Shown one piece after another: positions 23,953 to 43,464 of a stretch of DNA of 64,000 bases; position 1 is the first letter of the stretch, and every line of letters starts with the position of its first letter. This DNA comes from Nitrospirota bacterium (GTDB taxonomy: Bacteria; Nitrospirota; UBA9217): the NCBI GenBank assembly GCA_963790205.1, contig CAWBNQ010000002.1:1-64000 (forward strand). The letters are read 5' to 3'. The notes under the pieces are model-generated. The model ran no database searches. It was not told the DNA's origin and was given only the letters and a program-made list of their open reading frames with translations. Made by a program: the position numbers and the translations under genes.

Positions 23953-24103
23953 GATGCCTCCGGATTAAAAGTACTTTACAAACCAGGACCTATAATTGTA
24001 GCAAAGTTTTTGAATTCTGGAGTGAGCGTCTTTCCCGCAGTGACTCGACTGAGCTCGCCGAAGTCTTGCCGCAAGGAGCTTCAATCAAAGATAAAATCAA
24101 TTT

Positions 24104-24186
24104 TCACACGAAGGCACGAAGACACGAAGGAATATAAAAAACGATTCATTGTTCTCTTTTCTTTGTGGCTTTGTGGCTTCGTGTGA
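24104..24186. mobile_element. 83-bp MITE-like element whose arms match the GxxExxY gene flanks
   Basis: TCACACGAAGGCACGAAGACACGAAG (24104-24129), 31-bp AT-rich spacer, CTTTGTGGCTTTGTGGCTTCGTGTGA (24161-24186). Confidence 0.75.
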
Positions 24187-24234
24187 GGATCGTTTTTTAT
24201 TTCATGTTTCACTAGTCTGAGGCTTGCCTCGTCC

Positions 24235-40981: not shown

Positions 40982-41296
40982 CTACTTCGCTTGCCCCGTT
41001 TGCACAATAACGCATGCCGATTCGATTATTCTCCGGAAATTCTCCTGTGTCTCCGCCCAGTCCACGATATCCACCTTGAACGGCAGATCGGATTCTCTGA
41101 AGGCATCCTTTAAATCTGCCAGTATCGAGGCGGGCATGGATTCGCTGCCCATGACTGCGAGGTCCAGGTCGGAGAAGGGTTTGACCTTTCCGGCTACCCG
41201 GGAGCCGAAGGCCCGTACTTCCCGGTCGGGAATATAACGGCGGAGGATTGCCTGGACCTCTTTCAGATCAGCGGGTTTTATGTTGAGCTCAGGCAC
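40982..41296 (-). CDS. Minimal nucleotidyltransferase (MNT) antitoxin
   Basis: AFGSRVAG...SDLDLAV, KVDIVD; GTG start overlapping the HEPN stop. Confidence 0.9.
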   Translation of the reverse strand: MPELNIKPADLKEVQAILRRYIPDREVRAFGSRVAGKVKPFSDLDLAVMGSESMPASILADLKDAFRESDLPFKVDIVDWAETQENFRRIIESACVIVQTGQAK

Positions 41297-41708
41297 GGTT
41301 GCGTCGCTCCAGTTCCGCCAGCAGCTGGCGGACATCGTTCCGAAAATCCTTCAGAACGCTCACAATCTGTTCGGCTTTTGCCTGATCGTAGGTGTGGCTG
41401 GTGATGTTGCGTTTCTCCCGATAGTCCCGGTACCGCGCGATGTCCGCGATCAATCCGGCTTCCGCGCCGGTCCTGATCACGTCCATATAGCCCATGGTAT
41501 CTATGGCCGCCGGGTCGGCGGACATTTGTTCGAGCTGTCGTTTCAGCATTTTGAACGCCAATTCGTGGGTGAATTCGAAGGCCTGGATCGCGGCGGCGCG
41601 GAATTGCTCGCGCAGATCAGGGTCCTTTGCCAGGTCCGATGCGAGAAATTTCAAGCTCTTTTCCAGGGCTGTCAGTGCATTGCGCAAGGATGATACATCA
41701 AGCGTCAT
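41289..41708 (-). CDS. HEPN toxin, HI0074-like nucleotidyltransferase substrate-binding family
   Basis: IQAFEFTHELAFK and RNITSHTY (R-x4-H); GGAGG RBS. Confidence 0.9.
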   Translation of the reverse strand: MTLDVSSLRNALTALEKSLKFLASDLAKDPDLREQFRAAAIQAFEFTHELAFKMLKRQLEQMSADPAAIDTMGYMDVIRTGAEAGLIADIARYRDYREKRNITSHTYDQAKAEQIVSVLKDFRNDVRQLLAELERRNRA

Positions 41709-41884
41709 AGGTATTCCTCCAGGTGAAGGTCGTGAGGGGGAGAATGCGTTTTTTGAGCCGCGTCCGCATCGTAATCAGCTTATCATCGTTCAATCTTTTC
41801 CGCAAGATGGAACTTTTCATTTCCGGTTAAAACAAAAATGAAGCGTCTCGCGCAAAGCCGTATCAAGAACAAAATCTTATATTC

Positions 41885-42377
41885 TCACACGAAGGCACGA
41901 AGCCACGAAGAGGGGAAGTGCTTTTTCCCCGGTCCTATTTGACCTGTCCATTCAAAACGCGGGATATACCATCTTTCATCATGCCTTTACCAAAATTAAG
42001 GAGGTATCCTAGTTTTTTCCCAGTTAATTTCAGATAAGTAAGAACTTGCTTCTTGTGCGCCTTGTTGGCACTTTCAACCGCCTTCACCTCCAGAATGACC
42101 TTGTCTTCCACGATGATATCTGCGCGGAAACCTTCGTCGAATTGAATTCCATGGAATTGTACAGGGATGGGGATCTGTCTCTCGACTTTCAAGCCGGCTT
42201 CTTGAAGCAAATGCGCAAGAAGTACCTCATATACGGTTTCAAGCAGTCCCGGTCCCAGTTCCATGTGAAGGCGCACTGCACAGTCCACAATGATTTTGCC
42301 GATCTCATTCTCGGTCATTTCTTGTTGTGATGTCATTTGGCATCCGCCTTTCTTTGTGGCTTTGTGGCTTCGTGTGA
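41885..42377. mobile_element. Candidate 493-bp element: GxxExxY gene between 26-bp periodic inverted repeats
   Basis: TCACACGAAGGCACGAAGCCACGAAG (41885-41910) and CTTTGTGGCTTTGTGGCTTCGTGTGA (42352-42377). Confidence 0.7.
41935..42336 (-). CDS. GxxExxY protein (PD-(D/E)XK nuclease-like)
   Basis: LGPGLLETVYE, RADIIVEDKVILEVK, QVLTYL, GYLLNFG. Confidence 0.93.
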   Translation of the reverse strand: MTSQQEMTENEIGKIIVDCAVRLHMELGPGLLETVYEVLLAHLLQEAGLKVERQIPIPVQFHGIQFDEGFRADIIVEDKVILEVKAVESANKAHKKQVLTYLKLTGKKLGYLLNFGKGMMKDGISRVLNGQVK

Positions 42378-42400
42378 AGACCGTTGTTGTCTTGCTCTTC

Positions 42401-42995
42401 TTATGTATATTTCCTCACCACCGCCGTCACCACTCCGGCGATCTTGAGCTCGCTCTTCGGTTTAATGGGCTTATACTTGGGGTTCGCCGGCAGGAGCGTG
42501 ACGTTGTCGCCCCGTTTCCGCAGGTATTTCATGGTCCACTGGCCGTCCACCTCGGCGATGACGATGTCTCCGCTCCTGGGCGTTTGCCCCTTGTCCACGA
42601 TCACCATGTCTCCGGGGAGGATGCCCGCGCCGGACATGGAATCGCCGGACACTTTGAGCAGGAACGTGGCCTCGCGGTTCTGGATCAAAAGATCGTCGAG
42701 AGACAGGGTGTCGATCAGCTCTTCCTCCGCAGGGCTCGGGAACCCGGCCTCGACAATGCCGAGGACCCGCACGGGGGACGCGATGGAGCCGGGGACGAGC
42801 CTGCCTTTTTTGTCCCGGCCGAGGACTTTGAGCTTTTCGAGCCTGCCGACAAGCTTGGATACGGCGTTCTTCGACTTGAGGCCCGTCATTGCTCCGATCT
42901 CGGAAAAGCTCGGCATCCTGGCGTTTTTTTTTAAAGAACTGAGCAATGTCTCTGGTCCGGGATTGCAGCTTATCTTCCGATAGGTCTCGTGCCAT
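42401..42995 (-). CDS. lexA: LexA/UmuD-like S24 repressor; frameshift near 42921-42932 (possible sequencing error)
   Basis: N-terminus MARDLSEDKLQSR...FFKK joins RMPSFSEI by removing one base; VEAGFPSP cleavage site, GDSM Ser, TMKY Lys. Confidence 0.85.
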
Positions 42996-43001
42996 GGCCC
43001 C

Positions 43002-43030
43002 ATTATAGGTGAACGTTCGTTCACTATCAA
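43002..43030 (-). promoter_or_regulatory. Sigma70 promoter with SOS-box-like operator in the spacer
   Basis: TTGATA(43030)-17-TATAAT(43007); GTGAAC-N4-GTTCAC at 43009-43024. Confidence 0.85.
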
Positions 43031-43464
43031 GAGGGATCTCCTCCTCTCAGACAAGCACCGCTATGATGTGTGTCATGGCAGGTTGAGCATGACTGGTCCT
43101 ATACTCGTACCAGGACCGTGATACGCTATATATAGAAGAGGATGTGCAGCCGGAGAAGCGGATAAACCGGAGATGCGAAATGAAACCACACCCTGCACTC
43201 GCGCCGAGCACTCGTAAACGCCGGGTGCGGGCAGAGACACGGAAGAATTCCTGGTTAATACATGAACGTATTATTTTGATTTTCCAATAAGATTCTCCGT
43301 GCTCTCAAGGAAAAAAGCGACGAGAAATAAATAAAGACGGCTGGTAACATGAGGGCACAGAGTGGGAGGATGATCAAGGATGCATTTTGCCTTTAAAATT
43401 CAGAATCTCTCTGCGTGCTTTGTGGTTAATATTGACATTACGACAAGCGGAGAGAGGAGGCGCC

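Follow-up and report, generated by a model that had tools for sequence, protein, structure and literature searches.

GxxExxY nuclease genes between inverted rows of a seven-nucleotide word: a candidate partnership of nuclease and repeat in a Nitrospirota genome and other phyla

We describe a 493-bp (base pair) element at positions 41885–42377 of the window analysed here, a 64,000-nucleotide (nt) stretch of contig CAWBNQ010000002.1 in the Nitrospirota bacterium assembly GCA_963790205.1. The element consists of a single gene for a GxxExxY-family (PF13366/TIGR04256) nuclease between two inverted rows of a short word, and a gene-less counterpart lies at 24104–24186. This architecture is specific to one gene family. 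Its word types match protein clades, its genes and words co-occur across genomes, cassettes turn over at one site, gene-bearing copies grade through broken ones into empty hairpins, and the catalytic set of the protein is intact. We propose that gene and arms form a nuclease-plus-own-repeat partnership in which the GxxExxY protein is a site-specific nuclease for its flanking words, a proposal whose chances of being right or wrong we hold to be about equal.

The proposed mechanism treats the 493-bp unit as the gene-bearing form, and the copy at 24104–24186 as the gene-less form, of one dispersed repeat family whose arms consist of a 7-nt word (C-R-C-N-R-A-G plus spacer) repeated in mirror-image rows. 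The protein would bind these words and would cut at them, perhaps after C-R-C. Repair or copying at the cuts would maintain and spread the arms and, more rarely, the gene; the activity of this nuclease, not of an unrelated transposase, would generate new copies.

Results

Positions without a prefix refer to the window, which belongs to contig C2 of the source genome (G000; 4.34 Mb, 14 contigs); feature coordinates are collected in Table 1. An initial annotation, made from the sequence alone, had described a gene tightly bracketed by inverted arms of three words each with an 8-nt period, and the sequence and its open reading frame (ORF) bear this out (left-arm words span 41888–41910). The limits it gave for the unit also hold. 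Foreign metagenome contigs that carry similar arms elsewhere resemble the window only up to 41883/41884 and 42377/42378, which shows that the shared unit truly spans 41885–42377. The sequencing runs with matches to the window all had small shares (≤0.13) and consisted of metagenome contigs, with no RNA run listed among them; we used them for these boundaries and for one gene-less joint described below.

The gene-less copy does have nearly the same arms, as had been claimed. Over 28 nt per arm, the two copies are identical at 25 of 28 positions on the left and 27 of 28 on the right, and each is the other's nearest relative in the genome, agreeing at 52 of 56 arm positions as against at most 45 of 56 for seven other hairpins. 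The two-word pattern, allowing at most two mismatches, gave 10 matches in the window versus 0.55 expected, a number that none of 100 shuffles reached. The annotation had seen no target duplication; we likewise found none at either window copy or at seven other copies of the same type, and no outer terminal repeat around the window's own hairpin family.

Arms of this kind accompany GxxExxY genes far beyond the window. We gathered 80 homologous loci from genome contigs in many phyla, 79 of them testable for arms, and scored word rows within 150 nt. Of the 79 loci, 49 had rows on both sides, 21 on a single side and 9 none at all, whereas control windows shifted by 1.5 kb at the same loci had rows on both sides in 1 of 130, on one side in 1 and on neither in 128. 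Enrichment beside GxxExxY homologues, a check suggested with the original description, is thus strong and specific, and it extends to all eight copies in the source genome. Six of the nine row-less loci belong to Chryseobacterium, whose arms use a 9-nt word that the pattern misses. A pattern-free search for the best inverted repeat across the gene gave a median score of 13, versus 8 for flanks paired across loci, and the best self-similarity lag of the arms was 8 nt in 27 of 39. In-frame stops occur in 6 of the 80 genes.

Gene and arms move as one unit and have been transferred between phyla. The nearest homologues of the window protein are 73–83% identical and bear the same CAC words in other phyla; they come from contigs titled Nitrospiraceae, Brocadiaceae, Geobacteraceae, Kiritimatiellae, Verrucomicrobiota, Cytophagia, Anaerolineae and others. 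A quick maximum-likelihood tree was built from the 80 proteins. Four word types required 9 changes on it, whereas shuffled types averaged 25.2 and never fell that low in 200 shuffles. On this tree the window protein falls in a 24-row set, Calditrichaceae among its titles, that spans many phyla and is CAC-type save for two rows without detected arms; its fork has a Shimodaira–Hasegawa-like approximate likelihood-ratio (SH-aLRT) value of 86 and is drawn open.

The same association holds within the source genome. Eight PF13366 matches are present (six full-length, one truncated, one with stops), and all eight, genes and fragments alike, are enclosed by inverted word rows whose words vary from copy to copy. 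Word rows number 66 + 78, versus 28 + 25 in the genome read backwards. A strict octamer scan (at least two exact words per arm) found at least 31 hairpins, and looser scans yield more. Hairpins with loops of at least 60 nt form a decay series: two hold intact genes, two hold gene remnants, and the remaining loops hold nothing recognisable; in medium loops, no gene remnants beyond the two known ones were found. The distance between arm ends is 437–487 bp around an intact gene and 273–317 bp around a broken one, and the series then ends in the empty hairpin. Several open frames extend into the arms, and some hairpins are nested within one another's loops (C3:674216–674455). The view that gene-bearing and gene-less copies constitute one dispersed family is supported.

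Related genomes show a parallel pattern. The set comprised 31 genomes including the source. Among the 17 with a PF13366 gene (source included), 16 hold 4–126 three-word rows, compared with 0–3 in the backwards control, and G019 has the gene with no three-word rows; 13 of the 14 genomes that lack the gene have 0–1 rows above control. For the CAC.AAG word type in 13 family genomes, the cognate gene occurs in five of seven genomes that have 14 or more arms (G000, G001, G004, G006 and G007), but six genomes with 4 arms or fewer all lack it. Family words vary (CACGGAT, CGCAGAT, CACGAAT, CGCGAAT, GACAGGAT and GGAGAAAT, with periods of 8–11 nt), and, as read by eye, most words of family relatives keep the core C-R-C-N-R-A. 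A looser word definition applied to 38 genes of relatives gave rows on both sides, one side and neither in 17, 14 and 7 cases, against 6, 7 and 25 in the backwards control; this control is unclean because reversed rows match the loose pattern, and we do not rely on the count.

At orthologous sites the element is present in some relatives and absent or replaced in others. The 3' flank of lexA carries a CAC-type element in G000 and in G007, where the gene has 77% nucleotide identity, as does lexA, and two extra empty hairpins are present. G006, G014 and G016 have a CGC-type gene there, with a solo CAC-type arm retained beside lexA in G014 and G016, and G005 has a CGCGAGG-type gene. The element is missing from G010, G008 and G018, which have other genes at this place, and G004 keeps arm remnants only; contigs of G024 (217 nt) and G017 (193 nt) end just past lexA and were excluded. 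In one metagenome contig, which matches the HepT side at 95%, 41816 is linked to 42411 with the gene absent, as read from the two sides of the joint; a second contig matches lexA at 97% and departs from the window at 42411. Where G017 would be expected to have the gene-less copy, its spacer measures ~25 nt and contains no hairpin. Of the presence/absence polymorphism with shared boundaries that the initial annotation asked for, the turnover at lexA and the empty G017 site uphold the first part; the relatives, being of different genera, do not give clean junctions.

The protein itself matches, over its full length, PF13366 (135.5 bits, cut-off 22, 1.4e-39, residues 11–127) and TIGR04256 (135.2 bits, cut-off 35, 1.2e-39), and both the motif G30-L-L-E33-T-V-Y36 and the catalytic residues D73, E83 and K85 are intact. 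Among 40 aligned homologues, G28, G30, L31, Y36, D73, E83, K85, Y101, G110, F115 and R126 are invariant and E33 is kept in at least 90%. An AlphaFold2 (AF2) model (predicted local distance difference test, pLDDT, 94.4; predicted template modelling score, pTM, 0.88) was compared with known structures using VIA-align, which matched 3ijm (Z 8.1, root-mean-square deviation 3.4, 101 aligned), the BpuSI nuclease domain (7.8), Cas4 SSO0001 (7.5) and Hjc (6.1). The model supports a restriction-endonuclease-like fold at superfamily level alone, because the structure scores are middling. A sequence search of the PDB with the window protein returned no matches at E up to 1. A particular likeness to Holliday-junction resolvases was considered and rejected, Hjc scoring level with many others. 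The gene matches PF13366 alone: it lacks an HUH/Y1 transposase motif and is not of the GIY-YIG type (cd10448), whose representatives in this genome sit elsewhere. The enzyme class accordingly differs from that of RAYT transposases, as had been pointed out. PF13366/TIGR04256 is a large family present in bacteria, archaea and viruses. A 2012 superfamily survey listed its function as unknown and noted multiple transfers (PMC3424549).

What do the arms preserve, a stem or a row of words? In 43 gene-bearing pairs, gene-sense mismatches comprise 32 G.T, 41 A.C and 68 of transversion type. We took 56 hairpins whose arms each have three words and compared pairing partners with non-partner words; the fractions differing were alike: 0.14 versus 0.16 at word position 2, 0.69 versus 0.62 at position 4, 0.19 versus 0.16 at position 5 and 0.59 versus 0.60 in the spacer. 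Positions 1–3 and 5–7 are conserved, and position 4 and the spacer vary freely without compensation between arms. In tandem contexts the transcribed strand has the stronger fold in 3 cases and the opposite strand in 7; nor is the stronger fold associated with the G-rich strand (7 versus 8). A selected perfect stem is rejected, since partners are no more alike than non-partners, as is wobble asymmetry as the mark of a strand-specific hairpin. The arms are alike because both are rows of one word and not because a stem is kept, and the equality of partners and non-partners favours a word recognised by protein. A stem may nonetheless form, since six of eight positions pair.

These results do not support the earlier interpretation of arm asymmetry and G:T mismatches as signs of a selected single-strand or RNA hairpin: wobble bias, partner excess and strand bias are all missing. 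The two mismatches noted in the window are real, and the gene-less copy folds at −23.8 kcal/mol (z −7.5) on the + strand and −12.5 kcal/mol (z −2.3) on the − strand; the conserved asymmetry is not general in the family.

A small nested hairpin points to the same word from another side. This element of ~45 nt (GCCTGCACCC...GTGCAGGG; some copies reach ~75 nt with a further nested piece) splits a right-arm word at CTTN|GYG, equivalent to CRC|N forward, in seven of its eight exact copies in the source genome. Across 38 distinct copies in this genome and its relatives (L215–L244), the left flank ends in CTTN in 17, and others sit in different word rows or palindromes. The words are thus places where DNA breaks or takes up inserts. 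A partner gene for this small element did not turn up; the two small GIY-YIG genes of the genome were checked, and their flanks differ.

The evidence on arm pairing also bears on an RNA-level explanation, in which the unit would be a cassette like the ORF-bearing intervening sequences (IVS) of 23S rRNA: the arms would pair in the transcript, RNase III would cut or the stem would insulate, operons would in this way tolerate the gene, and the nuclease would have no direct relation to its arms. GxxExxY genes are co-oriented with both neighbours in 47 of 69 loci and opposed to both in 4, and elements persist inside operons, at the nuoF|nuoG junction in four genera (G000, G006, G008 and G010; gene names read from flanking translations) and at nuoJ|nuoK in the source genome. 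Orientation and persistence fit expression by read-through. Arms of ~24 nt are near the RNase III substrate minimum; PF05635 genes of the source genome are wrapped in much the same way by 7-nt words; and the Coxiella IVS, which carries an S23p ORF, has been characterised as selfish (PMC4990558). Yet compensatory change is absent from every variable word position, and neither the gene-sense mismatches nor the fold strengths favour the transcript. Gene-less hairpins, moreover, occupy divergent and convergent spacers at background rates (tandem/divergent/convergent 19/6/6 versus 1657/603/587 by a crude longest-ORF gene caller), and Rfam at gathering threshold gave no match in the window, rRNA included. 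We consider an RNA cassette unlikely. The 19/6/6 placement also shows no REP-like preference for tandem or convergent spacers.

Turnover at lexA could also reflect homing. Hairpins would then arise independently, the nuclease would cut empty ones that carry its own word, and the gene of a filled copy would be copied into them by recombination across the arms. In keeping with this, one site holds cassettes of differing word type, with the solo CAC arm left by lexA in G014 and G016, and arm-gene-arm-loop-arm layouts (G007, G014, L054, L048, L052 and L058) look as though a cassette had been set next to, or within, a hairpin already there; small PD-(D/E)XK homing endonucleases, such as I-Ssp6803I, are known. 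However, each word type in a genome comprises one or two old, diverged genes and many empties, so invasion would be rare at best, the 26-nt arms are short for recombinational repair, and the source of the empties is left unaccounted for. Homing as the main process therefore seems to us improbable.

Several observations weigh against a partnership of nuclease and repeat. The relatives are kin, and their co-occurrence counts are not independent trials. G015 (91% complete) has 18 word rows and no PF13366 gene, G009 has 16 CAC.AAG arms and no cognate gene, and G005 (100% complete, 20 contigs) has 56 such arms together with five intact and three broken PF13366 genes, none of them CAC.AAG-armed. Word-type clustering on the protein tree may be co-inheritance only, because gene and arms travel together. 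Within the source genome the paralogues are old, with end branches of 0.1–4.2 changes per column and ~65% identity, by eye, between two CGCAAAG-type proteins; this age is evidence against any recent copying of the gene by itself. Among gene-less copies of the window's type, the loops bear no relation to one another or to the gene copy, and simple copy-and-delete fails to account for them. Finally, what we say of binding, cutting and movement draws on sequence and predicted structure.

Some hairpins, furthermore, multiply as parts of other repeats. In G007, at least 14 near-identical CGCTGAG/CGCGGAG word hairpins (L122–L141) form the core of a ~135-bp miniature inverted-repeat transposable element (MITE) that has outer terminal repeats TGATGAAGTCG... 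/ ...CGAGACCATCA and is flanked by 4-bp AT-rich target duplications; in copy L134 the loop contains another insert. The same MITE type occurs in the source genome at C3:674290–674400, inside a hairpin, and at C1:214470–214530. About ten CAC-type hairpins of G005 have 75 nt or more of flanking sequence in common on either side and so lie within a larger multi-copy repeat. Such copies also tell against the partnership: they indicate that hairpins can multiply without this nuclease, as passengers.

Taken to its end, this reasoning would have unrelated transposases (through MITE cores), or slippage and recombination, spread the hairpins, with GxxExxY genes accumulating in safe loops. The MITE and larger-repeat copies favour it, as do the arms without cognate gene in G005, G009 and G015 and an insertion sequence (IS) fragment that adjoins a solo arm. 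It leaves unexplained why almost all genes of one protein family, in many phyla, are wrapped (49 + 21 of 79 loci versus 2 of 130 control windows), why gene and word type are linked across phyla and why gene-less genomes lack rows, and the window's own family has neither outer terminal repeat nor target duplication. We regard a pure passenger origin as distinctly unlikely. The solo arm in question, of CAC right-arm type (C11:788–816), adjoins an IS-type transposase fragment at a contig end (C11:1–816), which may represent an IS insertion into a hairpin.

Other features deserve record. The four clear genes for PF05635 four-helix-bundle proteins ('23S rRNA IVS protein') in the source genome all lie between inverted word rows of 7-nt period (CAGGGTT, GGACGAG, GTCAGGA and similar), and the genome holds 119 lag-7 arrays. 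Between the window element and the HepT start, a non-coding motif at 41776–41815 is 88–95% conserved across genera, exceeding the flanking genes; on the − strand it is promoter-like (TTGCGG, 17 nt, TAAGCT) and overlaps a palindrome, TTCCATCTT..AAGATTGAA. An unrelated dispersed repeat at 24007–24085 adjoins the gene-less hairpin and has 85–93% matches in G010, G016, G005 and the source genome itself (C1:1161797). In the leader of the window gene, the AAAGGC that follows the inner word recurs in G014 and G016.

Table 1. Positions of the element, its gene-less copy, neighbouring genes and related features of the source genome (C numbers denote contigs)
Feature	Position	Strand	Description
Left arm	41882–41912	.	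TTCTCA, then CACGAAG words at 41888, 41896, 41904 (8-nt period)
Spacer, left arm to stop codon	41912–41934	-	Small GGGGAA...TTCCCC stem-loop just past gene stop, read from sequence
GxxExxY / PDDEXK_3 nuclease gene, 133 amino acids	41935–42336	-	PF13366 and TIGR04256 profile matches
Leader, 15 nt, arm inner end to ATG	42337–42351	-	AAAGG stretch, candidate ribosome-binding site
Right arm	42352–42380	.	CTTTGTG, CTTTGTG, CTTCGTG (42352–42374), then TGAAGA
Gene-less copy	24101–24189	.	Words 24107–24129 and 24161–24183; 31-nt AT-rich loop; ends TTTTCA...TGAGGA
lexA	42401–43054	-	Neighbour, same strand as nuclease gene
HepT/MntA-like pair	41289–41708, 40982–41335	-	Neighbours, same strand as nuclease gene
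PF13366 gene, CACGAAG word	C2:41935		The window's own copy
PF13366 genes, CGCAAAG word	C1:1053987, C3:657468		
PF13366 genes, CGCGGAG word	C6:63118, C6:37791		Copy at C6:37791 truncated
PF13366 pseudogene, CACNGAG word	C5:40874–41149		Between nuoJ and nuoK
PF13366 gene, other word	C5:46037–46417		Intact, between nuoF and nuoG
PF13366 gene, other word	C5:80607		
PF05635 genes	C14:70645–70962, C11:84481–84798, C1:495865–496170, C3:880124–880448		
Copies of the GCCTGCACCC element	C1:177231, C3:336301, C3:831567, C3:676739, C5:365510, C8:213780, C8:223096, C11:134988		

Discussion

The closest tested system is that of the NTS/SRM repeats with their Ssn nucleases, and the other close analogue is that of repetitive extragenic palindromic (REP) sequences and REPINs with RAYT transposases. 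Reasoning by analogy, we think that the element most likely works like these pairs. It belongs to neither, because its nuclease fold differs.

Ssn proteins are GIY-YIG nucleases flanked by their own hairpin repeat, beside which they cut single-stranded DNA (Chenal et al. 2025, PMC11893778). The element described here is likewise a small single-domain nuclease gene with its own hairpin-forming repeat on both sides; in both systems the genome has tens to hundreds of further repeats without a gene, repeat variants match protein variants, and repeat-rich genomes usually hold the gene. Unlike Ssn, its nuclease is of the PD-(D/E)XK class, and its arms are two to four short words with a period of 8–11 nt, whereas the NTS is one 20–50-nt semi-palindrome with an oriented upstream tag. 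Single-strand-specific cutting and an effect on transformation have been demonstrated for SsnA (PMC11893778); the present element is known from its sequence. Two small single-domain GIY-YIG genes do occur in the source genome (C14:6575–6790 and C1:499709–499924), and the first lies between inverted GTCATTCTGAGG...CCTCAGAATGAC arms, which may make it an Ssn-like nuclease-repeat pair.

Likeness to REP/RAYT (PMC3116915, PMC3337134) is partial. Alternating-orientation tandem clusters of hairpins stand beside genes at L090, L096, L105 and L114, as in REP/RAYT systems and bacterial interspersed mosaic elements (BIME). A REP type usually has one or two old gene copies, and the same is true here. Both systems place the gene between inverted repeat copies, and gene-less hairpin doublets far outnumber genes. 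Unlike RAYT systems, this one has no Y1 HUH transposase and no GTAG or CGTC tag (PMC3733652), and gene and arms have been exchanged between phyla, whereas RAYT inheritance has been described as mainly vertical (PMC5581495).

Two further comparisons concern form. Like the IVS of Coxiella and Leptospira 23S rRNA (PMC4990558), the element is a unit of ~430–500 nt with a small ORF between inverted repeats, co-oriented in a transcribed region, and the IVS ORF family, PF05635, is itself wrapped by 7-nt word rows in the source genome. Unlike an IVS, which lies in helix 25 or 45 of 23S rRNA and is excised by RNase III, the element sits between lexA and the HepT/MntA pair, its ORF family differs and selection on its stem is not apparent. 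As with MITEs, short non-coding derivatives outnumber coding copies, and one hairpin subfamily of G007 is a true MITE core; the window's family, by contrast, lacks target duplications and a transposase-type gene. A PD-(D/E)XK nuclease is not known to carry out strand transfer alone.

The initial annotation had proposed a new family of mobile elements. Searches of the literature on GxxExxY, PF13366, TIGR04256/PDDEXK_3 and repeat-plus-nuclease systems, which left aside subscription journals and supplements, found no description of it and no link between these proteins and repeats; for TIGR04256/PDDEXK_3 they returned the 2012 superfamily survey alone. The novelty is qualified by Ssn/NTS, a tested analogue with another nuclease fold (PMC11893778).

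A wider and more doubtful possibility, which we offer tentatively, is that GxxExxY proteins are a large family of word-reading PD-(D/E)XK nucleases. Each clade might read its own 7-nt word, C-R-C-N-R-A-G/T, set out in short rows, and cut just after C-R-C, and the family would then be a third, independently evolved nuclease-plus-own-repeat system beside REP/RAYT and NTS/Ssn, reshaping intergenic regions in many phyla. Such nucleases may act on single-stranded DNA while a cell replicates or is transformed, and a branch parallel to them may be represented by the four-helix-bundle genes and their 7-nt words.

Word rows explain many intergenic palindromes and the heptamer and octamer arrays between housekeeping genes (nuo, lexA, pil); Elhai reportedly described small dispersed repeats in heptamer arrays in 2008. 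Where open frames run into the arms, the rows likewise produce spurious ORF extensions in annotation. If the repeat partnership is true, it would give the large GxxExxY family its first testable role. If clade-specific word reading is true, the family would supply small nucleases with a natural range of sequence specificities, as Ssn has proved to do.

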